A DNA stretch of 30,430 nt, from NCBI GenBank assembly GCA_964419065.1, contig CAYQOD010000001.1, forward strand, positions 1 to 30,430. Reading direction: 5' to 3'. Numbering within the stretch: the first letter of the stretch is position 1; each line of letters starts with the position of its first letter. This stretch comes from an uncultured Thermodesulfobacteriota bacterium (GTDB taxonomy: Bacteria; Desulfobacterota; B13-G15; RBG-16-54-18). Both the position numbers and the translations under genes were made by a program. Below are positions 4,845 through 30,276 of the stretch, one piece after another. The notes beneath the pieces are model-generated. The model saw only the letters and a program-made list of their open reading frames with translations, did not search any database and was not told the DNA's origin.

Positions 4845-5321
4845 GTGGTACTGGGCGAATCACCGAAGGGCTTCTTCTTGGTGAGCGGTTCTGCAGAAGG
4901 GTTTACTCCCCTCAATGCCTTTGATGCTGCTTTGATAAATGCCGGCATTGGGGATATCAACCTAGTGAAGGTGAGCAGTATTATCCCCCCGGGGGGTCGC
5001 GAGATTGAACCGCGAGATCTTCCCCGCGGTGCCATTGTTCCGGTGGCGTACAGCTTTATCGTCAGTGACATCCCGGGAGAGGTCATCTCCGCAGCTGTGG
5101 CCGTGGCCCTCCCTAACAACGAGAAGGAAGCCGGGCTGATCATGGAGTATTCCTCTCATGGTCACAGGGAGGAGGCTGAAGAGATCGTGCGGACCATGGC
5201 GGTGGAGGGGATGAAGATTCGCAAAAGGGAGATGAAGGAGATAAAGAGTACCTCCGTCGAATATAAGGTGAAAACGATAGGGGCGGCAATGGCCGCGGTG
5301 GTTCTGTGGCCCTACCATTGA
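4845..5321 (+). CDS. pdaD: Pyruvoyl-dependent arginine decarboxylase
   Basis: LNAFDAALINAGIGDINLVKVS-SIIPP cleavage motif; starts 1 nt after the speD stop. Confidence 0.9.
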   Translation: MVLGESPKGFFLVSGSAEGFTPLNAFDAALINAGIGDINLVKVSSIIPPGGREIEPRDLPRGAIVPVAYSFIVSDIPGEVISAAVAVALPNNEKEAGLIMEYSSHGHREEAEEIVRTMAVEGMKIRKREMKEIKSTSVEYKVKTIGAAMAAVVLWPYH

Positions 5322-5331
5322 GTGATGAAAC

Positions 5332-5355
5332 CCGAAATCCCCATGGGGGTTTCGG
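5332..5355. repeat. Hairpin CCGAAATCCCC-ATG-GGGGTTTCGG
   Basis: 11-bp stem with one G-U pair; no U-tract follows. Confidence 0.6.
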
Positions 5356-5530
5356 TGCACCTCTGGCTAAAAACATACCTTCATTAAAAAAGTGATCAAG
5401 GATGCAAATAAAAGTTTCATAGTCCTCGTGAGCCATGAATCGAGCGGAAGGCCAGCCCCCTGAATCTTTGGGTCATGAGTTAAAAAATCTCCATACTGCT
5501 CCCCAAAAGGAAATATCCCATTGTGGGGGT

Positions 5531-5614
5531 TTCAGGGCCGATCATCGGCCCTGAAGGGAGGGCGAAGGCGACGATGAAGGTTGAAACCATTTCCAGCGTT
5601 TCTTCACGTCGCCT
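5531..5614. repeat. Two adjacent hairpins: perfect 12-bp palindrome (5531-5555) and an imperfect long stem (5566-5614)
   Basis: TTCAGGGCCGAT-c-ATCGGCCCTGAA; AGGCGACG(a)TGAAG ... CTTCACGTCGCCT. Confidence 0.7.
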
Positions 5615-5629
5615 CGGCATTAAATAGTT

Positions 5630-6484
5630 ATGGAATTACTACTCAATTCTCATACGTTCCTCGCCGCCAATTCCACCTATGATAAGAGTTCGATCGTCAT
5701 TGTCGGCTGTCCATTAGACAGTACCACTATCTTCCGGCCAGGGACCCGGTTCGCCCCCCAGGCCATACGCGAGGCTTCGTGGGGGCTAGAGACCTACAGC
5801 CCCCGCCTGAACAGGGATCTGGAAGGTTTGAAGATCTGTGATGTCGGGGATCTCACCCTCCCACTGGGTCATTCGGAGGGTGCCCTGAAGGCAATCGAGG
5901 GGTATCTGGCTACCGTTATGGGAGACGGCAAGTTCCCCATCCTCATGGGGGGTGAGCACCTCATCTCGCTGCCCGCAGTCTGGAAGTGTGCCCGACAGTA
6001 CCCTGACCTCCTCGTGGTCCAAGTGGACGCCCACGCAGACCTTCGCTCCGACTATGAAGGAGAATCCCTGTCGCACGCCACCGTGATGAAAAGGATTGTG
6101 GATCTCCTCGGGCGGGATAATATCTGTCAAGTGGGCATTCGGTCGGGGACGAAGGAAGAAATGCGCTCTGCACAAGAGATGGGGAGCCTCTGCGAGCCAG
6201 GGGAGGTCCTCAGCCGGGGAACAGGGCGGCCGGTCTATCTCACCGTCGACCTCGATATTTTGGACCCCGGGATTGCCCCTGGTGTCAGCACCCCCGAGCC
6301 AGGAGGGTTCACCTTTCATGAGCTCATCTCCCTCATCGACCATTTGAGGTCCCTGCAAGTAGTGGGATTTGACCTCGTTGAGCTCTGCCCGCCCTACGAT
6401 CTCACTCAACAGTCCGCTATGGCAGCGGCCAAGCTCCTTCGAGAGCTCATCCTCCAGTTCTGCTGGGAGAGTGATCGTCCGTAA
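5630..6484 (+). CDS. speB: Agmatinase (ureohydrolase family)
   Basis: GGEH, DAHADL, TVDLDILDP, GVSTPEPGG metal-binding motifs; RPGTRFAP. Confidence 0.9.
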   Translation: MELLLNSHTFLAANSTYDKSSIVIVGCPLDSTTIFRPGTRFAPQAIREASWGLETYSPRLNRDLEGLKICDVGDLTLPLGHSEGALKAIEGYLATVMGDGKFPILMGGEHLISLPAVWKCARQYPDLLVVQVDAHADLRSDYEGESLSHATVMKRIVDLLGRDNICQVGIRSGTKEEMRSAQEMGSLCEPGEVLSRGTGRPVYLTVDLDILDPGIAPGVSTPEPGGFTFHELISLIDHLRSLQVVGFDLVELCPPYDLTQQSAMAAAKLLRELILQFCWESDRP

Positions 6485-6525: not shown

Positions 6526-8028
6526 ATGAAGAAAGATGTAGTTTGTAGAAGCATGATGGACTACGACGCGATCATCATCGGTGCCGGATTAGGGGGATTG
6601 GTGTGCGGCACCCTCCTCGCCCAGAGGGGGTGGCGGGTGGCCATCTTTGAGAAGAAGAACAGGGTTGGGGGATGTTGCGCCTCGCTGATGCGCGGCGGAT
6701 TTACCTTCGACCTCTCGGTGCAGTCCATGGGGGGGTGCAGGGAGGGAGAGCGGACCTGGAGGCTCTTGGACCAACTGGACCTCAGGGAACGGATCGAACT
6801 TCTCCACCTGGATCCGGCCCGTGAGTACCACTTCCCCGATCTCGTGATCCGGCAGTACGCCGATGTGGGATCCCACGTGGACCACCTCTGTTCTCTCTTT
6901 CCCCGCGAGCGGAAGGGCATCAACGAGGTCTACCGGATTTACCGCTCTCTTGCCGAGGAGATCGATCGCCTCCCTGAGACCCTCTCGTGGTTTGACCCCG
7001 CGCGGTTCGCCCGGGAGTTCCCCTCCATGTTTCAGTACCGGGACAAGACCCTCCAGGATGTGCTGGGTTCACACATCAAGGACCCAAAACTCAGGGTGAT
7101 CCTGGGGGTGAGGAGCTCTTACACCCTACTGCCACCCAGCAGACTCTCCCTTATCGCCATGGCTGCCCTCGAGATGAGCTACCTGCAGGGGGGAGTGGCA
7201 GTGGTGAAGGGGAAGATGGAGCAGCTACCTCAGCTCCTGGCCGCGGGGTTTCGAGACGCCGGGGGGCAGCTCCATACCCGGCAGGAGATAAGAAAGATCA
7301 TGGTAGAGGAGGGAAATACGGTAGGCGTGCAGCTCAAGGGGAGAGAAACGGTTACCTCCCGGGTAGTGGTCTCCAACGCCGATGCCACCTCCACCTTCTT
7401 GGGGATGGTCGGGAAGGAGTCCCTGCCGAACGGTTGGGTCAAGCGGCTGATGGGGATGCAGCCGTCTCTCTCTTACTTCATCGTCTATCTGGGCGTTGAG
7501 GGGGAACTGAACCTCTCGAATTCCAACAATGAGATCTTCCCTGGCTATGACCTGGAGGAGGAGTACCGATATCTGGATGAGGGGACGATTCCCCCAACTC
7601 CCCCCTACTATCTGCTCGCACCCTCCCAGGTGAACCCCTCTCACGCCCCCGCGGGATGTAGCACCGTGTGCCTGAGCTATAAGGCCCCCTATCACCTGCG
7701 GGAAAGGTGGAACGGGAAGACGCGGGAGGCCCTGGCCAAACGGATCATCGCCCAGGCCGAAGGGATGATCCCCCACCTGCGCAGAAGGATCGTCGTGCAG
7801 GTACGCTCCACCCCTGTAACCATCGAGCGGATGACGGGCAACCGCTGGGGTGCGGCCTACGGGTGGGCTCAGGTCCTGCGGCAAGCGGGGATCTATCGAC
7901 TCAACAGGGTATCCCCCATCGACGGGCTCTACCTGGCCGGCCACTGGACCGCCCCGGGAGGGGGGGTGGCTGCGGCCATGGCCTCGGGGCAGATAACCGC
8001 CGATCTGATTGGGGAGAGACTACAGTGA
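6526..8028 (+). CDS. Phytoene desaturase/CrtI-like FAD-dependent oxidoreductase
   Basis: N-terminal GAGLGGL...FEK...VGG dinucleotide fold; C-terminal GAAYG, GLYLAGHWTAPGGGV. Start may be 6553/6556. Confidence 0.85.
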   Translation: MKKDVVCRSMMDYDAIIIGAGLGGLVCGTLLAQRGWRVAIFEKKNRVGGCCASLMRGGFTFDLSVQSMGGCREGERTWRLLDQLDLRERIELLHLDPAREYHFPDLVIRQYADVGSHVDHLCSLFPRERKGINEVYRIYRSLAEEIDRLPETLSWFDPARFAREFPSMFQYRDKTLQDVLGSHIKDPKLRVILGVRSSYTLLPPSRLSLIAMAALEMSYLQGGVAVVKGKMEQLPQLLAAGFRDAGGQLHTRQEIRKIMVEEGNTVGVQLKGRETVTSRVVVSNADATSTFLGMVGKESLPNGWVKRLMGMQPSLSYFIVYLGVEGELNLSNSNNEIFPGYDLEEEYRYLDEGTIPPTPPYYLLAPSQVNPSHAPAGCSTVCLSYKAPYHLRERWNGKTREALAKRIIAQAEGMIPHLRRRIVVQVRSTPVTIERMTGNRWGAAYGWAQVLRQAGIYRLNRVSPIDGLYLAGHWTAPGGGVAAAMASGQITADLIGERLQ

Positions 8029-8036
8029 GAAGATCG

Positions 8037-8663
8037 ATGTCTATGAGATGTGGGTTTATCGGCTTCATCATCTGTGTGCTGGTGCTGGGTTGTGCACCGA
8101 AGCGGATGCCGGAGGAGGGGTGGGAGCGGATACCCCTCTCTCAAATCGTTCCGACGACCATCATGAGATATCAGGGGGTACGCTCGCTGCAGGCCCAGCT
8201 CTCCGTGAAGCTGGAGGTGCAGGATGACTTCTATCTCCTGCGAGGGATCCTCCTCTATGAAAACCCCGCCTCTCTGCGTTTACAACTCGCCTCGAGCCTC
8301 GGTCCGACAGTAGGAGAGGTAATCTACGCAGACGGTCTCCTCGTTATCCTCGTGCCCAGTGAAGGGAAACTCTACCGGGGGTGGCTGAATCAGGATTCCC
8401 AGCCAGGGGAAGATACCCTCTTTCTCACGCTGAACTTTCAGGATTACCATGATATGGGAACAGGGCAGTTTCCCACCACTATCTACGGCGTGGTTGAGAA
8501 CGCCGGCGTTAGGTTCGAGCTGCGTCTCAAAGAGCCGAAAATTGATCTCCCCCTGTCTGCGGAGGCCTTCACCACCCCCAGAGCAGGGTGGGAGGTCCAT
8601 CCCCTAGCGGACCTGAAGAAGCTCCTCCATACAGCCAAAGGACAGGGGATCAGTGAAGATTAA
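8037..8663 (+). CDS. Putative lipoprotein with LolA/LolB-like (DUF4292-like) fold
   Basis: 3' part of ORF 7707-8663. ATG 8037, 8 nt after the previous stop, gives a hydrophobic signal ending VLGC; beta-rich body; C-terminal LSAEAFTTPRAGWEV resembles LolA-type tails. Fold call is tentative. Confidence 0.65.
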   Translation: MSMRCGFIGFIICVLVLGCAPKRMPEEGWERIPLSQIVPTTIMRYQGVRSLQAQLSVKLEVQDDFYLLRGILLYENPASLRLQLASSLGPTVGEVIYADGLLVILVPSEGKLYRGWLNQDSQPGEDTLFLTLNFQDYHDMGTGQFPTTIYGVVENAGVRFELRLKEPKIDLPLSAEAFTTPRAGWEVHPLADLKKLLHTAKGQGISED

Positions 8664-9975
8664 GATCATTGTCCCTCGCTGGCCCAAGGACAGCTTCTGG
8701 GACGTCATCACCTTTAAGTTTCCCTCCCTGAACACCACTCTGCTGGCCGCCCTCACCCCGGTCGACCACCAGGTCTCCATCTACGACGAGAGCATCGTCC
8801 CCCTGGACCTTGATGAGAATTGTGACCTGGTCGCCATCACCGCCATGACCCCCCTGGCCCCTCGGGGATACGAGATCGCCGATGAGTACCGGCGCAAGGG
8901 GGTGCAGGTGATCATGGGAGGCATACATCCTACCTGGCTGCCTAATGAGGCTATCGCCCACTGCGATGCGGTAGTGATCGGTGAGGCCGATGAGATCTGG
9001 CCGGAGGTGGTGAGGGATGCGACCCGGGGGGAGCTGAAGCGGTTTTACCGGCAGCAGAGACGCACCGATCTCTCACGCCTACCCCTACCCCGTCGGGACC
9101 TCTTGAACTCCAAGGGGTACTTCTTCGAGAACACCATCCAGACCACCCGGGGGTGCCCCTTTGACTGTGAGTTCTGCTCCGTGACGGCCATCTATGGGGG
9201 GACCTATCGGACCCGCCCTCTCGAGGAGGTGGAGCGGGAGATCAGCTCCCTGCGTCGGGCAGCGGCCTACATCTTCTTCGTCGATGACAACGTCGTAGGC
9301 GACATCAGGTACGCCCGTAAGCTCTTCACCATGCTCTCCCAGTACCATCTGCGGTGGGTGAGTCAGAGTCCCATCACCATCGCCCAGAACGAGGAGCTGA
9401 TCCGTCTCATGGCTCGGGCAGGGTGCCACGGGATGTTCATCGGCTTTGAGAGCCTCAGCCCCAAGAACCTGGCCCTGATGGGGAAGAAGACCAACAAGGT
9501 GGAGCGCTACGAGGCGGGGATCAAGCGGCTCCATGACCATGGAATTGGGGTCCACGCCTCCTTTGTCTTCGGGTACGACTACGACGATCCTTCGGTCTTC
9601 GAGGGCTTCCTCTCCTTTGCTCACCGGACCAAGATCGATGGTGCCTTTTTGCCGATACTGACCCCCTTTCCCGGCACCAGGATCCACCAGCGGTTGAAAA
9701 AAGAGGGCAGGATCATCACCGAGGACTGGAGCAAGTACGATATGGCCACCGTGGTCTTCAGACCCAAGGGGATGACAGTCGAGCAGTTGCAGGAAGGGTT
9801 CTGGTGGGTCAACAGGGAGTTCTACTCCGTCCGCTCCATGTTCAGACGGATCTTTCAACCCTTCGCCCTGCGCCGAAGCCTTATCATCTTCGGACCTATG
9901 AACATCGGCCACTGGCCGGCGGTGCGCAGGGCCGAGCGGTATTTTTACCGAAAGGGGGCCCTGTCACATGCTTGA
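8653..9975 (+). CDS. B12-binding domain radical SAM protein
   Basis: Cobalamin-binding-like N-terminus (VAITAMT...VIMGGIHPT...VVIGEAD); TTRGCPFDCEFC; FVDDN; IGFES; LTPFPGT. Overlaps the upstream stop. Confidence 0.9.
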   Translation: MKIKIIVPRWPKDSFWDVITFKFPSLNTTLLAALTPVDHQVSIYDESIVPLDLDENCDLVAITAMTPLAPRGYEIADEYRRKGVQVIMGGIHPTWLPNEAIAHCDAVVIGEADEIWPEVVRDATRGELKRFYRQQRRTDLSRLPLPRRDLLNSKGYFFENTIQTTRGCPFDCEFCSVTAIYGGTYRTRPLEEVEREISSLRRAAAYIFFVDDNVVGDIRYARKLFTMLSQYHLRWVSQSPITIAQNEELIRLMARAGCHGMFIGFESLSPKNLALMGKKTNKVERYEAGIKRLHDHGIGVHASFVFGYDYDDPSVFEGFLSFAHRTKIDGAFLPILTPFPGTRIHQRLKKEGRIITEDWSKYDMATVVFRPKGMTVEQLQEGFWWVNREFYSVRSMFRRIFQPFALRRSLIIFGPMNIGHWPAVRRAERYFYRKGALSHA

Positions 9976-12475
9976 GCTCTTTCTGAAAAGGGCTGCTCGC
10001 CTCTCCGTGCGCCACCCCAAGCGGGTCCTGATCGCCTTTGTGCTGGTTCTCATCGCGGCCTTTCTGATCACCGGGAGGCTGCGCTTTGAGACCGATTGGT
10101 TGCAGCTTTTGCCCACCGACCAAGGGGCGCTCAAGGTCCTGGTGGAGGATCTGCGGGGGTTTGGCCAGTTGGAACGCCTCTATATCCTCGTGGAGGGGGA
10201 TCGGAAGGATACGATCATCGAGTCCGCCCAGGGGCTCAGGAGGTCTCTGGCCGAACTGGAGATCGGGGGTTCCAAGGCGTTTACACGGGTCTTTTCAGGA
10301 ATAGAAGCGGACCTTGCGGGATGGCAAGAGCTGCTTGACCTCTATGTCTCCCATCCCCAGCTCTACCTCAACGAGGATGAGGCGGGGGAGTTCACGGCGC
10401 GGCTCTCCGACGATAAGATCCGGGAGCAGATCCGCACGGCCAAGGGGCTGCTCATAAGCTACCTCTCCCCTGGCTGGAGGGATTTGGTCCTCACCGACCC
10501 CCTGGCGCTACGAGAACTGCTCTTGAAACGGTGGCAGGGAAAGTCCCCCTGGGCCCCCTCCCTGGCCGAGGGTTACCTCATCTCCCCGGATGGGGATACG
10601 CTGCTCATGGTGGCAGAACCGGCCTTCCCCTCTGCTGACTGGCGATCCTCCCAGGAGCTGGTGCAGAAGTTAAAGCCCATAACCAAGGCCTTTCCCCAGG
10701 TACGGATCTCCTTTGTGGGCCCCCATACCATGACCGTCGGCAAGGCGGGGGTGTTACAGAAGGATCTCCTCGTCTCCTTTGTGGGTTCGTTCATCATGGT
10801 GCTTGTCCTTTTCTATCTCGCCTACCGGCGGTGGGCAACGCTGCTCTTTGTCGGACTTCCGCTGCTGGTGGGGGTACAGCTCACCATGGGGGTCGCCGCA
10901 CTCTTTACCTCAGGGCTCAACCTCATCACGGTCTCCTTCGCTGCCATCATCGTGGGCTTGGGGATCGACTTTGCCATCCATATCTACCAACGCTACCATA
11001 ATGAACGCACAGCAGGTCGGGGGATGGAGACAGCGCTGGAGATCGCCCTGACGAAGACCGGAAAGGGGGTATGGACCGGAGGGCTTACCACCATCGCGGC
11101 CTTCCTCACCCTGGTACTGGCCCGCGTCAAGGGGATCATGGAACTGGGGGTGCTGGTCGCCGTGGGACTGGTCTTCTGCCTGCTGGCCACCTCCCTGGTG
11201 TTGCCCTCCTTTTTGGTCTGGATGGAGGGGAGGGGGTACCGGCATCGACCCCTGGGCGGGTGGGGTCTGGAGCGCCTCATCAATCTTCTGATAGCTCACT
11301 ATCGCACAATCATCATCGTCCTCATATCCCTGGCTATCGCCGGGGCATATCTGGGGGCTCGGGTGAAGATCATGGAAGGGGTGGAGGGATTTCGTCCCCG
11401 CGGACTGGAGGGCGTGCAGACCCTGGAAAGGATGCAGCAGGAGTTTGGAGGGGTAGGAAAGGGCATTACCGTGCTGCTCGAGGGAGCAGATCTGGATGGC
11501 CTCCTGCAGCAGCAGGAGGCCATCGCGGCATCCCTCCAGGATGAGTATGGGGAGAAAATCCTGTTTTTCTCTCACCTGGCCCAGTTTGCCCCCTCCACCG
11601 AGGGCCAACAACGGGTGCTGGCGGCGCTCCGTCAGGGGATGGACTACGAAAGGATCGCCCGATCCCTTACCACCGCCCTGAAGACAGAGGGCCTGAACCC
11701 GGCCCTCTTCGCACAACCCCGGCAGATGCTGCGGAGTCTGGCCCACGATCAAGTCCTCCTTGCCCCGACAGCGCTCTTGCAACAGCTCGCCAGCACACCC
11801 TTGGCCGAGATAATAGAGCGCTATGCGATGAAGACAGAGGGAGGGTACCGGTTGCGGCAGGAGATCCGATTCGATCCGACCGGGGTCGACCCCCTCCGGT
11901 TGCAGGAGGCGATCACGAGAATCGCCCCCCAGGCCCAGTGCACGGGCAACGAACTCATCGCCCTGGAATTGCGGGAGATGGTGAAACGCGATCTCACCCT
12001 CCTGGCTCCCCTGGCCCTGGTGTTGGTGCTCATTCTGCTCTTTTGGCACTTCAGAAACCCCCTCTGGGTGGTGATGGCCCTGTCTCCCCTCTTGGTTGGG
12101 GTAGCCTACATGCTGGGGATCAGCGTCCTTTTGGGAATAGAGTTTAACCCGACCAATGCGGTGGCGGTTCCTTTGATCATCGGCATGGGAATCGACGACG
12201 GCATCCATATCGTCCACCGCTACCGCGAGAGGAAGGATGTGGCGTCGGCGGTCAGGTTTACGGGCAAGGCGGTCATCATGACCTCATTAACCACCATGGC
12301 GGGTTTCGGCTCGTTAAGTACCTCGCACTTTCCGGCCCTCTCCTCCCTCGGCAAGCTTGTCATCATCGGCATGGGGAGCTGCCTGCTCACCTCCCTGGTC
12401 TTGCTCCCGTCCCTTATGGTAGCGGTTGGTGGCAAAACAGGACAAAAGAAAAAGGGATCTTTAAAGAAGGAGTAA
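9968..12475 (+). CDS. MMPL/RND-family membrane transporter (HpnN-like architecture)
   Basis: Two TM bundles each preceded by a large soluble loop; motifs GLGIDFAIH and GMGIDDGIH; TTIAAF and TTMAGF repeats. Overlaps the upstream stop. Confidence 0.9.
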   Translation: MLELFLKRAARLSVRHPKRVLIAFVLVLIAAFLITGRLRFETDWLQLLPTDQGALKVLVEDLRGFGQLERLYILVEGDRKDTIIESAQGLRRSLAELEIGGSKAFTRVFSGIEADLAGWQELLDLYVSHPQLYLNEDEAGEFTARLSDDKIREQIRTAKGLLISYLSPGWRDLVLTDPLALRELLLKRWQGKSPWAPSLAEGYLISPDGDTLLMVAEPAFPSADWRSSQELVQKLKPITKAFPQVRISFVGPHTMTVGKAGVLQKDLLVSFVGSFIMVLVLFYLAYRRWATLLFVGLPLLVGVQLTMGVAALFTSGLNLITVSFAAIIVGLGIDFAIHIYQRYHNERTAGRGMETALEIALTKTGKGVWTGGLTTIAAFLTLVLARVKGIMELGVLVAVGLVFCLLATSLVLPSFLVWMEGRGYRHRPLGGWGLERLINLLIAHYRTIIIVLISLAIAGAYLGARVKIMEGVEGFRPRGLEGVQTLERMQQEFGGVGKGITVLLEGADLDGLLQQQEAIAASLQDEYGEKILFFSHLAQFAPSTEGQQRVLAALRQGMDYERIARSLTTALKTEGLNPALFAQPRQMLRSLAHDQVLLAPTALLQQLASTPLAEIIERYAMKTEGGYRLRQEIRFDPTGVDPLRLQEAITRIAPQAQCTGNELIALELREMVKRDLTLLAPLALVLVLILLFWHFRNPLWVVMALSPLLVGVAYMLGISVLLGIEFNPTNAVAVPLIIGMGIDDGIHIVHRYRERKDVASAVRFTGKAVIMTSLTTMAGFGSLSTSHFPALSSLGKLVIIGMGSCLLTSLVLLPSLMVAVGGKTGQKKKGSLKKE

Positions 12476-19297: not shown

Positions 19298-19326
19298 TTG
19301 ACGTCTGCCTCATTTTTAGCTATGAT
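19298..19326 (+). promoter_or_regulatory. Sigma70 promoter TTGACG-N17-TATGAT for bamD
   Basis: 5/6 matches in both hexamers, 17-nt spacer. Confidence 0.7.
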
Positions 19327-19359
19327 GGGTTATTTTATAAGTAAGGGGGATATAATGAT

Positions 19360-20571
19360 ATGAAGTTCAACTATACACGGCTGATAGTAATGGTTATTGT
19401 CTCCTCGCTTCTGCTTTTCGGCTGCGCTGGCAAGAAGAAGAACCTCCCCCTCCCCAAAGACCCTGCCGTACTCTACACAAAAGGGACTGTCCTCTTCAAC
19501 AAAGGGAAATACAAAGAGGCCATAAAGGCCTTCACCCAACTCAAGAACTACTTCCCCTCTGATGAACTCTATGCCCTCAAGGCCGACCTCCGGATCGCGG
19601 ACTGTCACTTCTTCCGGAAGGAATATCCGGAGGCGATATCACGGTATACGGAGTTTAAAAAACAACATCCCTTTCACCCTGACGTCCCCTATGTGGAGTT
19701 TCAGAGAGGGCTCTGTTATTATCAACAGATATTATCGAAAGATCGAGACCAAGAGGCCACGGAAAAGGCCCTAACCGCCTTTCAAAATGTGGTCTCCAAC
19801 TATCCTGATAGTATCTTCGCCCAGAAGGCCCGGGAGAAGATCACCTTCTGTCGGCGGAGGCTGGCGGAAAACGATCTCTACATCGCCCGTTTCTATCTCC
19901 GCAAGAGGGAATACCCTGCTGCGGAGAAAAGGGCCGCTCTGGTCTCTGAAAGATATCCTGAGTCTGGGATAGGTGATGAGGCACTCTACTACCTCGCCAT
20001 CGCCCTCCATAAGCAGGAGAGAAATCCTGAGGCCCTGACCCCCTTGACACGACTGGTAGAGGATTACCCCCAAAGTCCTTTCGCCAAAGAAGGAAAGAAG
20101 CTCTTGGCCAGCCTGAAGACGGAAGGAGTGGTGGAGGTCCCTTCGGTACGTGAGGGAGGGGAGATGATGGCATCCACGCCCTTGGGCACAACGACGAAAG
20201 AAAAGTTTCCCTTCCAGATTACCGCCAGGCATACTGAGAAGATCCCTGAGAAGAATGCCGTCATGTATACGGAAGAAGTAGTCGTCTTGGGCGAAGGGGC
20301 GGTCATTCGTGCCGATTCCCTCATGGTGACCATGGGAGGGGAAGATGTCCCCAGGGAGATGGTGGCCATGGGTGAGGTGAAGGTGCAGGGAGGGGGGGAA
20401 GAGATCTTCTGCAAAAAGGCCGTTTGGTCCCCGACGCAAAATCTCTTGGTGATGACGGGCGATGCCAAGATCAGGGGATTTGCAGAGTGGACACGGGGAG
20501 ACGAGATCACCCTTGACCTCGATACCGGCAGGATAGAGATCAAAGGTAAGAAGGTGGAGCCTATGGATTAA
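19360..20571 (+). CDS. bamD: Outer-membrane assembly lipoprotein BamD fused to a C-terminal LptA/OstA-like domain
   Basis: Lipobox LFGC; TPR motifs YPEAISRYTEFKKQHP, YVEFQRGLCYY, RDQEAT..AL..F..VV..YP.S, LAENDLYIARFY; from about nt 20206 PFQITA...IRADSL...MVAMGEVKV...KAVW...LVMTGDAKI...RGDEITLDL. Confidence 0.85.
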   Translation: MKFNYTRLIVMVIVSSLLLFGCAGKKKNLPLPKDPAVLYTKGTVLFNKGKYKEAIKAFTQLKNYFPSDELYALKADLRIADCHFFRKEYPEAISRYTEFKKQHPFHPDVPYVEFQRGLCYYQQILSKDRDQEATEKALTAFQNVVSNYPDSIFAQKAREKITFCRRRLAENDLYIARFYLRKREYPAAEKRAALVSERYPESGIGDEALYYLAIALHKQERNPEALTPLTRLVEDYPQSPFAKEGKKLLASLKTEGVVEVPSVREGGEMMASTPLGTTTKEKFPFQITARHTEKIPEKNAVMYTEEVVVLGEGAVIRADSLMVTMGGEDVPREMVAMGEVKVQGGGEEIFCKKAVWSPTQNLLVMTGDAKIRGFAEWTRGDEITLDLDTGRIEIKGKKVEPMD

Positions 20572-20615
20572 ATCGAGGTCACGAGGGCCCTGCATGGTGA
20601 AAGATCGGGTTTGGA

Positions 20616-20642
20616 GGGGGATCGTATCCCCCCTTCTTTTTA
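20616..20642 (+). terminator. Possible intrinsic terminator after bamD
   Basis: GGGGGAT-cgt-ATCCCCC stem followed by CTTCTTTTT. Confidence 0.5.
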
Positions 20643-20654
20643 TTGGTTCCAGGG

Positions 20655-23556: not shown

Positions 23557-24399
23557 CTACAGGATCTGTATCTCCTCCAAGATGCGTTTTTTAGTCGCTA
23601 AAGGCTCATGCTCTTTTTGAGCCTTTCCTGCGATCTCTTTCCCGAGCAAGGCAGCGCCGAGGGCTCCGGTGATCAACGGCTCGTCAGGCACCACGATATC
23701 GTGGTCCAACTGCTCGGAGAGGGCCTTCACCAGACCCTTGTTCTTGCCCCCTCCACCGGTCAGGACAACGAGGTCTTCTACCCGAAGCCGATTGACCATC
23801 CTGACCACCCTATCCGCTAAGGATCTATGAACCCCGGCAACCAGATCAGGGATAGGCACCCCTCGCGCTAGGCTGGTCGCCACCTCCTGCTGCGCCCATA
23901 TGGTGCAGATGTTGCTAATCTGCGCTGGATTCGTGCTCTGCAGGGATCTATCCCCGATCTCTTCCAGTGGTATCCCCAGGGTATCGGCGATCACCTCAAT
24001 GAACCTGCCGGTACCCGCGGCACACTTGTCGTTCATAACGAAATCGATCGGCCTGCCGGTTGCATCCACCTTTATGGCCTTGCTATCCTGGCCCCCAATA
24101 TCGATGATGGTCTTGGCATCGGGGAAAAGGCTGAAAATCCCCCTGGCGTGACAGGTGATCTCTGTAATCTGTTTATCGGCAAAGGGGACGTTGATCCTCC
24201 CGTAGCCTGTAGAGACGATATAGGTGATTTTATCAAAGGGTATGCCTGCTTCCTTCAAGGCCTCTTCCATGACCTTGTTGGCGAGCCTGCGCTGTTCCGG
24301 GCCAGTGGGGCCTATAACCGAAGCGATGATCCCATCGTCCAGGATCAACGCCTTGGTCATAGTGGAACCGACATCAATGCCTGCAAAGTACGCCGTCAT
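23557..24399 (-). CDS. ASKHA-type ATP-dependent activase, BzdQ/BcrA(alpha)-like subunit
   Basis: GIDVGST, STGYGR, EITCHARG, DIGGQDSK, MNDKCAAGTG, SNICTIWA, LTGGGG, GALGAA. Confidence 0.85.
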   Translation of the reverse strand: MTAYFAGIDVGSTMTKALILDDGIIASVIGPTGPEQRRLANKVMEEALKEAGIPFDKITYIVSTGYGRINVPFADKQITEITCHARGIFSLFPDAKTIIDIGGQDSKAIKVDATGRPIDFVMNDKCAAGTGRFIEVIADTLGIPLEEIGDRSLQSTNPAQISNICTIWAQQEVATSLARGVPIPDLVAGVHRSLADRVVRMVNRLRVEDLVVLTGGGGKNKGLVKALSEQLDHDIVVPDEPLITGALGAALLGKEIAGKAQKEHEPLATKKRILEEIQIL

Positions 24400-24411
24400 T
24401 GCCCTCTGGTA

Positions 24412-25815
24412 CTATGCTGCCTTGCTCTGCCGGATGGACTCCAGGGTTTCGATGAAGGCATCGATCTTGTTTCGTGTGTCGACCTCTGAGTATGAGGTGA
24501 TATCGATAATATCACTCTCCAGAATCAGGGAAGGGAGTTCACGGTATACCGTCTCTTTCTTCCCGTCCTTTCCGAGCATTAAGACAGGGATGGGTTTATA
24601 GATCTTCCTTAATTGGTGCAGCTGCCAGATGAGGCCCACGTGCCATGTGCGGCATGAAAACGCCTCGTGCATGACCACACCGTCGATCTTATAGTCCTCA
24701 ATCCACTGGATCAGGCGCTCCACATCGGGCTCTGATCCAGGTCGGTTCCTGGCCCTGTCATACCAGAAGGTCCAATATCCGAGCCAACGCCATGCAATAT
24801 GTTCGATGGGGTCCTTGGTCTCGGGTATATCCATCTCATAGAGGGGCATGACCATCCGGTAGGTCGTCTCGACAGGGAAGGTGGCACCCTTGCTGTTAAA
24901 GTAGTTGAAGTCGTTGAGGGCAAACCAGGCAGGCAATCCCCCTCCCCACATGAGCCGGTATTTCTCATGCTCAACCTCCCCCTCTCCCCTGGCGATCTTC
25001 TCCTCCAATTCTTTCTTGAGATTTACAAAGAAATTGTAGGCCTCCTGGGTGGCCATCATGAAGCATATAGGCACCATGGTATTCATGGCATCACCGGTAC
25101 CCATAGGAGAAGGCACCGCCCGTCGCAACTCATATGTCTTGTGGATCAGGTTCCAGGTCCGATTGGCCAGGTCAACGAGCTCGCGCAGACGATCATAATC
25201 CATCTTCTTTCCGGTCTGCTCCTCACAGAATCTTACCAGTCCGCGCAGCTGCTCGACGATATATTTATGATAGTACCCCCACACCTCCCGGTGATCTCGT
25301 TGCGGATCAAAGAGCGGATAGGGGAGGTCAATATTGTAGACTGGCACATCCGGCATAAACTGCTGAGCTGCCTGGTACCACTTGGACCTCGGGTCACAGA
25401 GGATCTGCCCACTCGATATCATGAAATCAGGCCTCGCCTGTCCCCCCCACGGGGCATCGGGAGGCATATCCCTCAGTTCTTCCCGCCACTGATCAAACCC
25501 GAGCCCGCACAGGGCATAGGTACAGAGGGAGCGAGAAAAGCCTAAAGATTCCGCCCTTTGAAGGAATCGCTCGGCATCCCGCTTTGCCCCGCAGATACCG
25601 GCAAAGTTCTCAGTCCACAGAGGCAGGATATCCAGGGCACGGAGGATCTCTTCGTGATGACAGACGATAAAGGTATAGGCTATCTTCTGCCCTCCCTCTG
25701 CCCGTGCCCGAAGGGTTCCGGCAATAAACTCCTTGACCATGGGGCCGATGGAGGCAGCCGCTTGGGTTGCGGTCATCCTCTTTTTGTGCTCTTTCTCTTT
25801 CTGTTCCTCAGCCAT
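24412..25815 (-). CDS. 2-hydroxyacyl-CoA dehydratase/benzoyl-CoA reductase family subunit, BzdO/BcrB(beta)-like
   Basis: ENF...C...AE..GFSRSLCTY, PDF...LCD.RSKWYQ, DLP, YRLMWGGG, IDGVVMHEAFSCR. Confidence 0.8.
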   Translation of the reverse strand: MAEEQKEKEHKKRMTATQAAASIGPMVKEFIAGTLRARAEGGQKIAYTFIVCHHEEILRALDILPLWTENFAGICGAKRDAERFLQRAESLGFSRSLCTYALCGLGFDQWREELRDMPPDAPWGGQARPDFMISSGQILCDPRSKWYQAAQQFMPDVPVYNIDLPYPLFDPQRDHREVWGYYHKYIVEQLRGLVRFCEEQTGKKMDYDRLRELVDLANRTWNLIHKTYELRRAVPSPMGTGDAMNTMVPICFMMATQEAYNFFVNLKKELEEKIARGEGEVEHEKYRLMWGGGLPAWFALNDFNYFNSKGATFPVETTYRMVMPLYEMDIPETKDPIEHIAWRWLGYWTFWYDRARNRPGSEPDVERLIQWIEDYKIDGVVMHEAFSCRTWHVGLIWQLHQLRKIYKPIPVLMLGKDGKKETVYRELPSLILESDIIDITSYSEVDTRNKIDAFIETLESIRQSKAA

Positions 25816-25831
25816 CGCCTAAACCCTCCTC

Positions 25832-25873
25832 ATCCCCCCTCATCCCCCTTTAGAAAAGGGGGGATGGGGGGAT
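25832..25873. repeat. REP-like C/G-rich hairpin between the two reductase subunit genes
   Basis: ATCCCCCC(t)CATCCCCCTT-TAGAA-AAGGGGGGATGGGGGGAT. Confidence 0.75.
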
Positions 25874-25891
25874 TTGAATTGGAAATCCTCT

Positions 25892-27052
25892 TTAGCCGAT
25901 CATCTCAAGAAACGCCTGGATCCTCGTCTTGAGTTGGCCGATGGTCCCTGCCGAGTAGAGATCTTCCAGGTGGAGGACCGGGAGATTGATGGATTGGTAG
26001 TACGCCTTTCGTGCGGGGACCTCAAACCCGAAGGGATCGCAGTATTTATACACGTAGAGGATTGCGCCGTCTACATTGAACTCCTTGGCATATGTCCCGA
26101 TATCACCGAACCGGTTGGCGATATCCCCCTCGAAGGTCCCCGCCGTATTCTCCCGGAAGGTCTTGGGACAGTTGACCTTATCCAGATACCGGCGACCAAG
26201 GGCCTCTATAGGATTTCCTTCGACATCAGTACGGGGGAAGTAATCCCTGGTCCCGTTGCAGAGGGTATCAGCCACTACAGTGGCCCCGAGTTCCTCCACG
26301 AGCTTGACCATCTCAATGTTATCCACACAGGGGCCATCGATGAGTATCCGCGGGCCTTTCTTCAGCAAAGATCTCTTCCTTCGACCAATCTCCGCCACGA
26401 TCTCGTCGAAGAGGGCATTGGCCTCGGTAACGGGCAGGCTCGATCCGACGGTGAGCACCATCATCACCTCTGTCCCTGAGATCAGGGGTGGATTAGCTTT
26501 CCTGAATTCATAGAGGGTCCGCGCCTTATCCCTCTTTTCATTGTGCAGTCGGATGGCCTCGGACAAGTCTTCGTCGGTGATCTCTTTGCCGACAAACTCT
26601 CCCAAGGTTTTTCGGAACGTGTCCAACTCTGCATTAAAAAAATCAAAGGATGATGGATCGCAGACTGTGGGGACGTTGACGAAGTGGAAGTACGGAATTC
26701 CCAGTGAGTAGCTCCAAACGCTGTAGCTCCTGACCATGCTGTCACAGGCGTGAGGAATGACCATCCCGGAGAGAAAGGCGTATCTGCCCTTCACCGAAAG
26801 ATCAAAACAGCTCCGGTAAAAGGGACACACGATGGTCTCCAGGAGGGTATCCCCTTTGGTGATGGGCTCATGGATGTCTCCCCGTACCCGAAAGGGGACA
26901 CATTCGGCTGCCGTGATCATCTCCAGGGGGACCAAGGAACAGACATAGCCGATCACCTTTGTACCTTTAGCGTTCAACTCCTTTGCCCGTACGCCATAAT
27001 CCTTGTAAAGTTCTTCTACCTTCGACAGTGCGTTACCCTTGGCTTCACTCAT
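25892..27052 (-). CDS. 2-hydroxyacyl-CoA dehydratase/benzoyl-CoA reductase family subunit, BzdN/BcrC(gamma)-like
   Basis: VIGYVCSLVPLEMI, CPFYRSC, PHACDS, DTLCNG, DGAILYVYKYCDP, TRIQAFLEM. Start ATG 27052 (SD GGAGA). Confidence 0.85.
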   Translation of the reverse strand: MSEAKGNALSKVEELYKDYGVRAKELNAKGTKVIGYVCSLVPLEMITAAECVPFRVRGDIHEPITKGDTLLETIVCPFYRSCFDLSVKGRYAFLSGMVIPHACDSMVRSYSVWSYSLGIPYFHFVNVPTVCDPSSFDFFNAELDTFRKTLGEFVGKEITDEDLSEAIRLHNEKRDKARTLYEFRKANPPLISGTEVMMVLTVGSSLPVTEANALFDEIVAEIGRRKRSLLKKGPRILIDGPCVDNIEMVKLVEELGATVVADTLCNGTRDYFPRTDVEGNPIEALGRRYLDKVNCPKTFRENTAGTFEGDIANRFGDIGTYAKEFNVDGAILYVYKYCDPFGFEVPARKAYYQSINLPVLHLEDLYSAGTIGQLKTRIQAFLEMIG

Positions 27053-27313
27053 CGGTTCTTCTCCCTTTCGCAGTCTCACTGTTAGATCACCATAACGTGC
27101 GTAAAACGGCAAGAGTTCGTTTTGTGGAGAGGTGCGTAGCAAAAGGAAAATCCCCATCTATCCCCGTAAAGGGGCTTGTTAAATTATACACATGCGAGAA
27201 ATGAAAGGCAATAAGAATATCGGCAGCTGAACTAAATAGTGTGAATAACGGTGTAGTAGCAGATAGGATAGAGGTCCCCGACTGATCTGCTACTGGCATG
27301 AACGACCTCTTTA

Positions 27314-28105
27314 TCAGGTCCCTATCTGTCCCCTGGCGATGATCGCTGCGCCGAGGGCGGCCGTCATATGGGGCTGGTGCGGCACGATGATCTCATGCCC
27401 TCTGATCTCCTTCAGGGCCTGGACAAGGCCTGCATCCCTTGCTCCGCCGCCCACCAGGGCCACGTCCTGCTCAACACCGACCCTCTCTGCCAGGCTGTTG
27501 ATCTGGGCCACCAGGGCCCTGTGCAGCCCTGCCAGGAGGTTTTCCTTGGCAGCACCCTCGGCGATCCTGGATATCGCCTCGGACTCCGCAAAGACGGCGC
27601 ACCCTGTGTTGAAACCCACCCTCTTTTTTGATTGTAAGGAAAGGGCTCCGATATCTTCCACCTTGACCTGTAACACCTTGGCAATTACCTGCAAGATCCT
27701 GCCGCTACCGCCGGCGCACTTGCCGCTCAACAGAAAGTTTTGTACGCTTCCGTTACCATCTATGCGAATGATCTTTGTATAGAGATCACCTACATCGATG
27801 ACGGTCCTCACCGAAGGAAAAAGCGATGAGACTCCTTTGACGTGACAGACGATATCATGTCTCACCTCATCGGCAAAGGTCACCTGTTTTGATCCATATC
27901 CAGTGGCGACGGTACGCGCAATATCCTCTTTTGTTATACCTGCCTCAGAAAGGAGTGTTTTCCGTATCCGATCAGCGGTGGCCTGGTAATCTCCCCCTGA
28001 CGGGCACTCAAAGGACGCCATGGGTTTGTGGTCACCGAGGATGATCCCCTTCGAGAAACATGAACCGATATCGATGCCCAATACAAAGGCCGCTTTTGTT
28101 CTCAC
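27314..28105 (-). CDS. Second ASKHA-type activase, BzdP/BcrD(delta)-like subunit
   Basis: GIDIGS, ATGYG, VIDVGDLYTK (instead of DIGGQD), SGKCAGGSG, TGCAVFAESE, LVGGGA, AALGAA. GTG 28105 preferred; ORF opens at 28132. Confidence 0.8.
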   Translation of the reverse strand: MRTKAAFVLGIDIGSCFSKGIILGDHKPMASFECPSGGDYQATADRIRKTLLSEAGITKEDIARTVATGYGSKQVTFADEVRHDIVCHVKGVSSLFPSVRTVIDVGDLYTKIIRIDGNGSVQNFLLSGKCAGGSGRILQVIAKVLQVKVEDIGALSLQSKKRVGFNTGCAVFAESEAISRIAEGAAKENLLAGLHRALVAQINSLAERVGVEQDVALVGGGARDAGLVQALKEIRGHEIIVPHQPHMTAALGAAIIARGQIGT

Positions 28106-28154
28106 GTCATTCTTCTCATGTCTGGACAACAATGAGACAGCTTAATATATCAAA

Positions 28155-28389: not shown

Positions 28390-30276
28390 TTACAATGTAT
28401 GGGGGGTTATATAATCCCCATGTTTTGCTTGCGCCGCCTTTAACCTTTCACGCTGCTCTTCCAATACTTCAAATAAAAGCCGTGGCGTATCAGGAACCCT
28501 CGTGCGGTAGATCTCTATCAATCTATCAATCTTAGCCAAATGTTGAGGTACCCGAACAGAGAACTGTTGAATGTAGTCTGTTTCGGTGAAGTCCCTGTCG
28601 AGTGTCTCCTTAAAGAGCCTCTTCAGGTCTTCATATTTCGGGATGAACCCTGTAGGTGTCTTGATGGCCTCAACATCACCGTGCACCCGTAACTCCATCC
28701 ATTTGAGCCAGACGCGCTTATCGGTCTTGTGATTTGTAAATTTGCCGTCGGGAGCTCTCAAGAAGTAATTTACCGAGAAGATGCGTGGCGGGTGAGCTAC
28801 GTCTGCGCCAAAGGTGAGGTTGCCCTCTATGTACCGTCCAATAGGTATAGAGAGGAAGTCAAGATTGGACATGGGGTTGGACTCGCGTACCCCTTCTTTC
28901 CCCAAGGTAGCGGCCGTCGTTTCGGATTCCAGCGCCGCACCTTTCGTAATAATGCCGTGAACCCAATCAAAGGCCTCTTCTACCGGGACCCACGTGTCAG
29001 AATCTCGACCGCCGTATATTATCCCACTCAGTATGACACCCTGAGGGTCATGGAGTTCAGGACCCACATTGTCCAGGATCGCCAGGTCTAAGGTAAATCG
29101 GGCATTCTTATGGGAAGGTGGTATTTCCTTTCCTTCCTTATCTTTCTTGCCCAAGAACCAATCACCTGAGTGATTAATCCCTTCCTGAGGACACGGGCCA
29201 TCTTTCCCAATCCAGTACACCTCCCTGTCTTTGGTAACCAGGATATTTGAAAATATAATTTCACCGGGGGAATTGAGTGCTTTCCACAGGATCCGGTCGT
29301 CAACGGAATTTACCCCCTCAATTATCCCAAACATCCCCTTTTCAACGTTCACAGCGCGCACGTGACCATCTATCCTTCGAAGGTATGCGATATCATCGCC
29401 GATGATGCTCTCGTCTTCTATCGTGGCGGTAGACGTCTTTCCGCACATAGAAGGGAACGCCCCTGCAAAATACGTGATCCTCTCCCCCGGACCGTGCACG
29501 CCCATGATGAGCATATGTTCCGTCAGCCACCCCTCTTCCGAACCCCTCTTAATAGCCAGACGCATTGCCAGTTTCTTAAGCCCCAGGGTATTGCCACCAT
29601 ACTGCGTGTTCGTGCTGTAGATAGTCTCGTCTTCCAGATCGATGTATACCCTTCGTTTCTCAATATTTTTACTTACCAATAGCCCCAGTCCCGCTTCAAC
29701 GAGTTCTCCCTGCGAGTGTACGAATTTAAAGAATCGATCGTAGTTGCCTAACCTGACGAATTCCCGGTAACCCTGCCTGTACAATAGATCCTCACTATGG
29801 GCGACGTAGCTTGAATCCGTGAGCTGAACGCACGGTATCGAAAATTCAGAGTTTGGAGGGCCAAGGCAGAAAAATTTGACATACAATTCATGCCCTTCCA
29901 TTATATTACGCAAAATCTCACGGATCTCCCGAATACCATCCTCTCTGTCCATGGCGTTGATCTCAGGGCCGAGGTCGACACCCTTGGGCACAAGAAACTT
30001 GCTGGTCGCTTTGTCCCGGGCCTGATCGTAATATCCGTCAAAATGTGCGGTGTGCCCCTCGATAGCGAGTTTTGCTTCCTCTCGGTTTCTGATCGCTGCT
30101 TCTCTGACAAAGCGAATATCTTCCGCCGAATCAGTGCAGACAAAAACCCTCGCCGGGTTGCAGAGCTCTACATACTCAGCAATAAACGCATGAAGCGCAA
30201 GGTTGTCTATTGCCATGAGCTTTTCATACTGATCACCCAATCGATCCTTGAGTATGTCTCTTACCTTCTGATCCAT
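28390..30276 (-). CDS. pckG: Phosphoenolpyruvate carboxykinase (GTP)
   Basis: NTQYGGNTLGLKK, WLTEHM, GAFPSMCGKTSTA, IGDDIAY, NVEKGMFG, HKNARF, IIYGGRD, FSVNYFL. Confidence 0.95.
   Translation of the reverse strand: MDQKVRDILKDRLGDQYEKLMAIDNLALHAFIAEYVELCNPARVFVCTDSAEDIRFVREAAIRNREEAKLAIEGHTAHFDGYYDQARDKATSKFLVPKGVDLGPEINAMDREDGIREIREILRNIMEGHELYVKFFCLGPPNSEFSIPCVQLTDSSYVAHSEDLLYRQGYREFVRLGNYDRFFKFVHSQGELVEAGLGLLVSKNIEKRRVYIDLEDETIYSTNTQYGGNTLGLKKLAMRLAIKRGSEEGWLTEHMLIMGVHGPGERITYFAGAFPSMCGKTSTATIEDESIIGDDIAYLRRIDGHVRAVNVEKGMFGIIEGVNSVDDRILWKALNSPGEIIFSNILVTKDREVYWIGKDGPCPQEGINHSGDWFLGKKDKEGKEIPPSHKNARFTLDLAILDNVGPELHDPQGVILSGIIYGGRDSDTWVPVEEAFDWVHGIITKGAALESETTAATLGKEGVRESNPMSNLDFLSIPIGRYIEGNLTFGADVAHPPRIFSVNYFLRAPDGKFTNHKTDKRVWLKWMELRVHGDVEAIKTPTGFIPKYEDLKRLFKETLDRDFTETDYIQQFSVRVPQHLAKIDRLIEIYRTRVPDTPRLLFEVLEEQRERLKAAQAKHGDYITPHTL

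Follow-up and report, generated by a model that had tools for sequence, protein, structure and literature searches.

The outer-membrane lipoprotein BamD of the β-barrel assembly machinery (BAM) and a β-jellyroll of the LptA/OstA type, the fold of the lipopolysaccharide (LPS) bridge, are encoded as a single polypeptide in an uncultured Thermodesulfobacteriota bacterium. The gene, referred to here as bamD::lptA, lies on contig CAYQOD010000001.1 of assembly GCA_964419065.1, of which positions 1 to 30,430 were analysed (this whole stretch of 30,430 nucleotides is called the window). The BamD half passes into the jellyroll half in one frame, without a stop or a frameshift, across the open reading frame (ORF) 19360-20571. 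The fusion is real, and the fused genes of a clade of uncultured Thermodesulfobacteriota are orthologues. A second form with a much longer linker occurs in the same phylum, and the architecture is not rare but widespread among its uncultured members, which are relatives of sulfate reducers.

Domain architecture of the fusion protein

The product is an outer-membrane lipoprotein with a full BamD, consisting of a signal peptide, the lipidation site Cys22 and a helical domain of the five-tetratricopeptide-repeat (TPR) type. The signal peptide and lipobox read MKFNYTRLIVMVIVSSLLLFG-C22, and the cysteine is invariant in 25 of 25 aligned homologues. The Pfam family YfiO/BamD (PF13525) is matched at residues 34-215 with 138.3 bits against a cut-off of 25, and the NCBIfam BamD model TIGR03302 at residues 7-241 with 221.9 bits against 81.4. 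The enterobacterial BamD equivalog NF008119 is not reached by the fusion protein (83.7 versus 363 bits), which is expected because the host phylum is distant from the Enterobacteria; the YbgF/CpoB models likewise score under their cut-offs on it. A full-length AlphaFold2 model was built on the 25-sequence alignment, with an overall predicted local distance difference test score (pLDDT) of 85. It places TPR helices at residues 35-254, with a pLDDT of about 90 or above across most of that span. The N-terminal half of this model retrieved BamD from the PDB with Foldseek (3qky, E 1.4e-11; E. coli BamD, template-modelling score TM(target) 0.80-0.87). Arginine R191 is invariant in the homologue alignment and aligns with the arginine of the Neisseria BamD segment AAANRAKKI; it may correspond to the arginine that contacts the POTRA5 domain of BamA (R197 in E. 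coli).

The C-terminal half belongs to the Lpt jellyrolls. Pfam LptD_N (PF03968) is matched at residues 286-390 with 33.9 bits in the whole protein against a gathering score of 20.4. When the C-terminal 152 residues were searched alone, the score rose to 36.3 bits, and profile positions 1-112 of 113 were covered. In the full-length AlphaFold2 model, ten β-strands are formed at residues 285-401 with a pLDDT of 83-93, and a model of the jellyroll alone reached a pLDDT of 92.4 and a predicted template-modelling score (pTM) of 0.85. Foldseek matched the C-terminal half of the full-length model to LptA/LptH in the PDB. For the jellyroll-only model, the sole significant PDB matches were Lpt jellyrolls, the 38 best all being LptA/LptH, the LptD N-domain or LptC (TM score by query, TMq, 0.63-0.74). 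The earlier note, made from the DNA letters alone, had proposed a complete BamD lipoprotein, a short linker and an LptA/OstA-type jellyroll in one chain, and had asked that the C-terminal region be modelled as such a fold; Pfam and NCBIfam profiles, AlphaFold2 and Foldseek agree on this architecture.

The jellyroll half is neither an LptD nor an ordinary LptA. The ORF stops two residues past the last modelled strand and PF04453 is not matched, so that the LptD architecture is absent. The domain also does not occur as a free protein of the periplasm with a signal peptide of its own, and it is not encoded in an lptC-lptA-lptB operon as is the hallmark of LptA. Conservation of the fold core was followed at 28 columns, namely those where 80% or more of 150 canonical domains have a hydrophobic residue; this measure probes the fold core and not LPS binding. 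The short-linker clade, to which the window protein belongs, retains 24 of these core and groove columns, and the long-linker forms 27 of 28. The four losses of the short clade are located at domain positions 12 and 14 (β-strand 2, near the N-terminal edge), 45 and 98. As judged from sequence and model, the jellyroll of the window is thus a well-folded yet derived relative of LptA.

Evidence for a single conserved gene

Not one indel occurs anywhere in the ORF in contigs that cover it completely and stem from four sequencing runs of four studies (coverage about 47x, 54x, 72x and 7x), and independent gene callers gave the identical 403-residue product on nine contigs. Of the 12 substitutions listed for the one divergent strain, 10 affect codon position 3 of the fusion frame, and they do so in both halves. 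When 5.8 billion proteins were searched, about 100 clusters with lengths of 388-436 residues were recovered. They are 43-77% identical across 94-100% of the length, and nearly all have both Pfam domains. The alignment of 25 homologues is colinear through the linker. Among species-representative genomes, the fused gene was found at loci L001-L012, with the jellyroll in the bamD frame in 12 of 12; locus L013 ends at a contig edge and is therefore outside the twelve that reach the jellyroll. The gene order truA-DUF362-fabF / bamD::lptA-rimO is conserved, so these loci are regarded as one orthologous locus. Where relatives of the gene were checked for two separate genes, a single fused gene was found. 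With about 100 colinear clusters, 12 orthologous loci and four independent assemblies, the fusion lies far outside what chance would produce.

Two of the loci were considered as pseudogenes and were rejected as such. The sequence of L007 is N-masked after residue ~351. The ORF of L006 is intact. Its 3' end recurs incompletely downstream, where a partial second copy of the jellyroll's last ~45 codons (L006:5234-5395) is probably an assembly repeat artefact. Four apparent stand-alone orthologues of the jellyroll (P0121-P0124) proved to be truncated gene calls of fused proteins.

The ratio of nonsynonymous to synonymous substitution (dN/dS) was calculated pairwise against the close orthologues L001-L009; the values are rough, with dS near saturation. 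BamD gave 0.08-0.14 and the jellyroll 0.19-0.39, compared with ~0.3-0.9 for the linker, whose amino acid identity to the same orthologues is 21-39%. Such values agree with a pair of functional domains that have a flexible tether between them. Both BamD and the jellyroll are kept by purifying selection, and the linker of ~30 residues is a flexible, fast-evolving tether.

That bamD was merged with a neighbouring lptA-like gene by a frameshift or an assembly error, or that the jellyroll is released as a second product from an internal start, has hardly any probability left and is effectively refuted. Its sole support is a GGAGG lying 7 nt before ATG 20167, from which the earlier note had considered an internal start. 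This suggestion did not hold: the GGAGG-N4-10-ATG pattern occurs 20 times in the window, versus a chance expectation of 17.5 +/- 3.7, the methionine of the internal ATG is not kept among orthologues, and no signal peptide exists inside the ORF ahead of the jellyroll, so that an internal product of a periplasmic fold would lack one. A separate jellyroll product was rejected on these grounds. A frameshift or assembly artefact was rejected because four independent assemblies are free of indels, the same product was obtained by independent callers, and the fused clusters are colinear (about 100 of the short-linker form and at least 570 of the long-linker form described below); the searches gave no orthologue consisting of the domain alone, the short matches being fragments. 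The continuous, stop-free translation that had been read from the letters of the window was confirmed in this way.

Distribution and origin of the fusion

The owners of the short-linker fusion are metagenome-assembled genomes (MAGs) of uncultured 'Deltaproteobacteria'/Thermodesulfobacteriota, for example RBG_13_52_11. Elsewhere in the phylum, BamD is a plain protein of ~250 residues, for example in Desulfuromonas, Geopsychrobacter, Syntrophobacterales and several uncultured lines, the latter being 46-50% identical in the BamD part.

In the long-linker form (e.g., P0113, P0194 and P0119), BamD is followed by 130-260 residues of repeats rich in proline, serine, glutamate and alanine, and then by the jellyroll. 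With P0113 as the query, at least 570 long-linker clusters were found at E <= 1e-20, and the best 120 of these matches all have both domains in 489-718 residues. They carry 'Thermodesulfobacteriota' or 'Deltaproteobacteria' MAG labels. Two genomic contexts were seen, aminotransferase / gene-DUF4440-ffh-rpsP-rimM-trmD and parA-gidB / gene / trx, the second of which is similar to the neighbourhood in which related lineages have an unfused bamD.

A rough neighbour-joining tree was built from 169 jellyroll domains. Those of the short-linker proteins form one clade in it and those of the long-linker proteins another, with their common ancestor at the root. Because the two groups of jellyrolls are not sisters, the tree suggests at least two independent BamD-LptA fusions; the tree is weak and the domain short.

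The jellyroll profile found 4521 relatives among 1.84 billion representative proteins. The closest non-fused ones are genuine LptAs, often with two to four tandem jellyrolls, and the nearest LptA genes are located between kdsA and lptB (kdsA-[lptC/lptA]-lptB) or in lptC-lptA-lptB-rpoN-hpf operons. On the LptA equivalog TIGR03002 (cut-off 71.7 bits), the operon LptAs score 79-158 bits, P0113 scores 81.2 and P0119 67.1. The long-linker jellyrolls are thus nearly canonical LptA.

Several further proteins were noticed during these searches. A single polypeptide of 756 residues (P0125, L057:2720-4990), encoded between kdsA and lptB, contains an LptC-like region and four LptA jellyrolls and may represent a whole periplasmic bridge as one protein. 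P0128, of 3303 residues, has 16 jellyroll-like stretches. P0219 (405 residues) has a signal peptide, a ~170-residue N-terminal domain, a linker rich in proline and glutamate and, at the C-terminus, a jellyroll that scores 72 bits on LptD_N; the tethering of LptA domains may be a wider theme. The Binatia BamD homologues at L036-L052 (e.g., L036:9956-11560) are 509-544 residues long, with a normal BamD domain and a ~300-residue tail rich in aspartate and glutamate. They were considered as a third fused lineage and rejected, since this extension is acidic low-complexity sequence with no jellyroll and no Pfam match in it. The 90%-identity cluster of P0308, which consists of BamD::LptA proteins of 519 residues, also lists a 40-residue 'ZapE, partial [Neisseria meningitidis]' and a 50-residue fragment, which is a clustering oddity.

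Proposed role and alternative explanations

The earlier note had inferred a physical link between outer-membrane protein (OMP) assembly and LPS transport. The recurrence of the fusion in more than one lineage strengthens this idea and hints that such a link exists. According to the explanation preferred here, whose chances of being right and wrong are about balanced, the protein is a housekeeping BamD with a tethered jellyroll that docks on the LptD N-domain or on LptA and thereby couples BAM to the LPS translocon. It would be the working BamD of the lineage, placed in the BAM complex beneath the outer membrane, because of its very high BamD score, the invariant arginine aligned with the BamA-contacting arginine, the housekeeping synteny and the bamD-like neighbourhoods. 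The short linker would confine the jellyroll to roughly 10 nm from BamD, near the outer membrane. In the Lpt bridge, all Lpt jellyrolls join edge-to-edge, and the tethered domain could dock on another Lpt jellyroll in the same manner, by edge-strand β-augmentation. The likeliest partner would be the N-terminal jellyroll that LptD has in the periplasm or, failing that, the LptA at the end of the bridge, because Lpt jellyrolls join edge-to-edge and a tether of ~30 residues stays near the outer membrane.

Such docking would hold BAM beside the LPS translocon. The tethered jellyroll might capture or protect the LptD jellyroll while BAM folds the LptD barrel, and then pass it to the bridge; alternatively, the benefit might be the co-localised insertion of OMPs and LPS. 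In delta-proteobacteria, BamA and BamD are present and BamB, BamC and BamE are absent, and replacements have been predicted to have evolved (PMC3359395). An extra module on BamD is plausible because delta-type lineages lack these three components.

Several results weigh against this explanation. The jellyroll of the window scores 38.4 and 41.5 bits on TIGR03002, under the cut-off, and β-strand 2 of the short-clade domain has turned polar at two positions, so that docking or binding in the manner of LptA may have been lost. No further lpt, lpx or bam gene is found among the genes of the window, and no lpt, lpx or bamA gene at the fetched loci of the fused clade. Across the window and ~1 Mb of fetched loci, further jellyroll, lpt or lptD genes were found solely in two unrelated lpt operons, which had been fetched as the homes of the jellyroll's nearest relatives and not as loci of the fused clade. 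The genomic context therefore gives no support for an Lpt link. The divergence of the short-clade jellyroll from canonical LptA suggests that it is specialised for docking or capping and does not act as an ordinary bridge unit.

The tethered jellyroll might instead be the outer-membrane-proximal LptA, or the only one, with LPS flowing from LptC, through LptA if present, to the BamD jellyroll and on to LptD, so that each LPS bridge would include BAM. This is rather unlikely, though more plausible for the long-linker forms, which it fits better: P0113 clears the LptA equivalog cut-off (81.2 versus 71.7) and P0119 almost does (67.1), one long-linker fusion was named LptA by NCBI, and tethers of 130-260 residues rich in proline, serine and glutamate could extend deep into the periplasm. 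The hydrophobic groove pattern, retained at 27/28 columns in the long and 24/28 in the short forms, also agrees with it. However, the domain of the window is far under the equivalog cut-off and has lost hydrophobic residues of β-strand 2, and ordinary multi-jellyroll LptAs occur in lpt operons among the searched lineages, which may or may not be those of the fusion-bearing genomes. A bolder version, in which BAM is a structural part of the LPS bridge, the BamD jellyroll serves as proximal or only LptA, one supercomplex inserts both OMPs and LPS, and free LptA is dispensed with, is improbable.

Alternatively, the jellyroll could be a client-binding module of BAM without a role in LPS transport, substituting for BamB, BamC and BamE or for periplasmic chaperones. 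It would bind unfolded OMP strands by β-augmentation, or the acyl chains of lipoproteins or LPS for co-assembly with OMPs. The absence of BamB, BamC and BamE from delta-type lineages (PMC3359395), the divergence of the window jellyroll from LptA and the absence of Lpt genes nearby are in favour of this possibility, which is nevertheless slightly less probable than a proximal LptA. An LptA-family jellyroll recurs as the partner in more than one lineage and is almost canonical in the long forms, which points to an LptA-specific property rather than that of a generic β-sandwich, and no earlier case of an Lpt jellyroll that binds OMPs was found.

Comparison with known systems

Like the characterised BamDs (YfiO; E. 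coli 5d0o_D and Rhodothermus marinus 3qky), the fusion protein is a lipobox lipoprotein with a domain of the five-TPR type (TM(target) up to 0.87). It differs from them by ~150 extra C-terminal residues and shares 22-29% identity with the solved structures. The earlier note did not recognise this architecture from model organisms, and its absence from them was supported; characterised BamDs have no tether and jellyroll extension.

With LptA (YhbN)/LptH, the C-terminal half shares the full-length jellyroll fold (TMq 0.64-0.72), PF03968 and a colinear motif pattern. Unlike these proteins, it is not a free secreted one, is encoded outside an lpt operon and scores under the equivalog cut-off. The N-terminal jellyroll of LptD is likewise of the LptD_N family, of similar fold (TMq 0.63-0.74) and held at the outer membrane. 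The fusion, however, is anchored by a lipoprotein and a flexible tether, not by a 26-strand barrel, and the OstA_C/LptD barrel domain is absent.

The long-linker BamD::LptA proteins have the same two domains in identical order, housekeeping neighbourhoods and BamD/LptA annotation. They differ from the window protein in the tether (130-260 versus ~30 residues), in the score of the jellyroll on TIGR03002 (67-81 bits) and in the genomic context.

In E. coli, assembly of LptD is promoted by BepA, a TPR protein that docks on BAM, and the lipoprotein LptM aids LptD maturation. Both are precedents for a dedicated connection between BAM and LptD. Unlike the fusion, they are separate proteins with no homology to the jellyroll and act by protease/chaperone activity or in oxidative maturation.

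Features of the gene and the rest of the window

The coordinates of the fusion gene and its signals are collected in Table 1. Because a promoter-like site, a ribosome-binding site and a hairpin with a T run flank the ORF, the gene appears to be transcribed as a unit by itself, with a putative promoter and terminator of its own. It is flanked by a divergently oriented fabF-like gene and by rimO. An antisense ORF of 274 codons (19771-20595, minus strand) overlaps it and is most likely a non-coding shadow ORF, because the third-position bias of the strain single-nucleotide differences follows the plus-strand frame.

Table 1. Features of the bamD::lptA gene and its surroundings (window positions)
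Feature	Position	Strand	Remarks
bamD::lptA-like fusion gene	19360..20571	+	403 aa plus stop, ATG start
Sigma-70-like promoter candidate TTGACG-17-TATGAT	19298..19326	+	10/12 consensus match only; 34 nt 5' of start codon
Shine-Dalgarno-like AAGGGGG	19343..19349	+	10 nt 5' of ATG; read from sequence
Lipoprotein signal peptide, lipobox LLLFG-C	19360..19425	+	Cys22 codon 19423-19425; read from sequence
BamD TPR domain, aa 25-254, including invariant R191	19432..20121	+	Profiles, model, Foldseek; dN/dS 0.08-0.14
Disordered linker, aa 255-284	20122..20211	+	pLDDT < 50 at aa 261-281; poorly conserved
Internal GGAGG...ATGATG	20155..20169	+	GGAGG 20155-20159; in-frame ATGs 20164, 20167; judged chance feature of Gly/Glu codons
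LptA/LptD_N-type β-jellyroll, aa 285-401	20212..20562	+	Pfam, model, Foldseek; dN/dS 0.19-0.39
Intrinsic-terminator-like GC-rich hairpin GGAGGGGGATCGTATCCCCCCTTC + T run	20613..20646	+	42 nt 3' of stop codon

The remaining genes of the window are ordinary housekeeping and catabolic ones. A pyruvoyl-dependent arginine decarboxylase adjoins an arginase-family (agmatinase-like) gene at 4845-6484, as a pair for polyamine synthesis. Three consecutive genes at 6526-12475, encoding an amine-oxidase/desaturase-like flavoprotein, an unassigned ORF followed by a B12-binding radical SAM enzyme, and a transporter of the MMPL/RND type, might together serve lipid modification and export. At 23557-28132, two ATPase genes of the BcrAD/BadFG type occur with two HGD-D genes (2-hydroxyacyl-CoA dehydratase/benzoyl-CoA reductase-like) and are followed by a GTP-dependent phosphoenolpyruvate carboxykinase gene at 28390-30276; this set fits an anaerobic fermenter or syntroph.

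The window itself derives from 'fossil metagenome' samples. The region 19300-20650 is present (98-100% of sampled words) in public runs of three studies, two of which label them 'fossil metagenome' whereas the third uses other labels. Runs assigned to a different organism (X11-X14) contain a ~99%-identical strain, which is presumably a contaminant or an associated microbe. No transcriptome run containing the fusion-gene sequence was found among public runs.

Significance of the fusion

No description of a BamD-LptA fusion was found in a full-text literature search that had most subscription journals outside its coverage. The sequences are public and were automatically named 'BamD' by the Joint Genome Institute (JGI) and NCBI, and once 'LptA' by NCBI; such labels conceal the fusion architecture. 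Two well-known modules are thus combined in an arrangement that is undescribed, is widespread and has probably arisen repeatedly.

How Gram-negative bacteria coordinate BAM, which assembles β-barrel proteins, with Lpt, which delivers LPS, is an open question, both being essential assembly lines. It is also unclear in the field how freshly folded LptD joins the periplasmic bridge. In E. coli, the BAM and Lpt machines are antibiotic targets. The covalent fusion of BamD with an LptA-type domain is Rosetta-stone evidence for joint function, present in hundreds of species-level clusters with probably more than one origin, and gives a lead on the coordination of BAM with Lpt. A BamD-anchored jellyroll docking on LptD or LptA would offer a testable handle on this coordination, with an outcome that may be transferable to E. 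coli.

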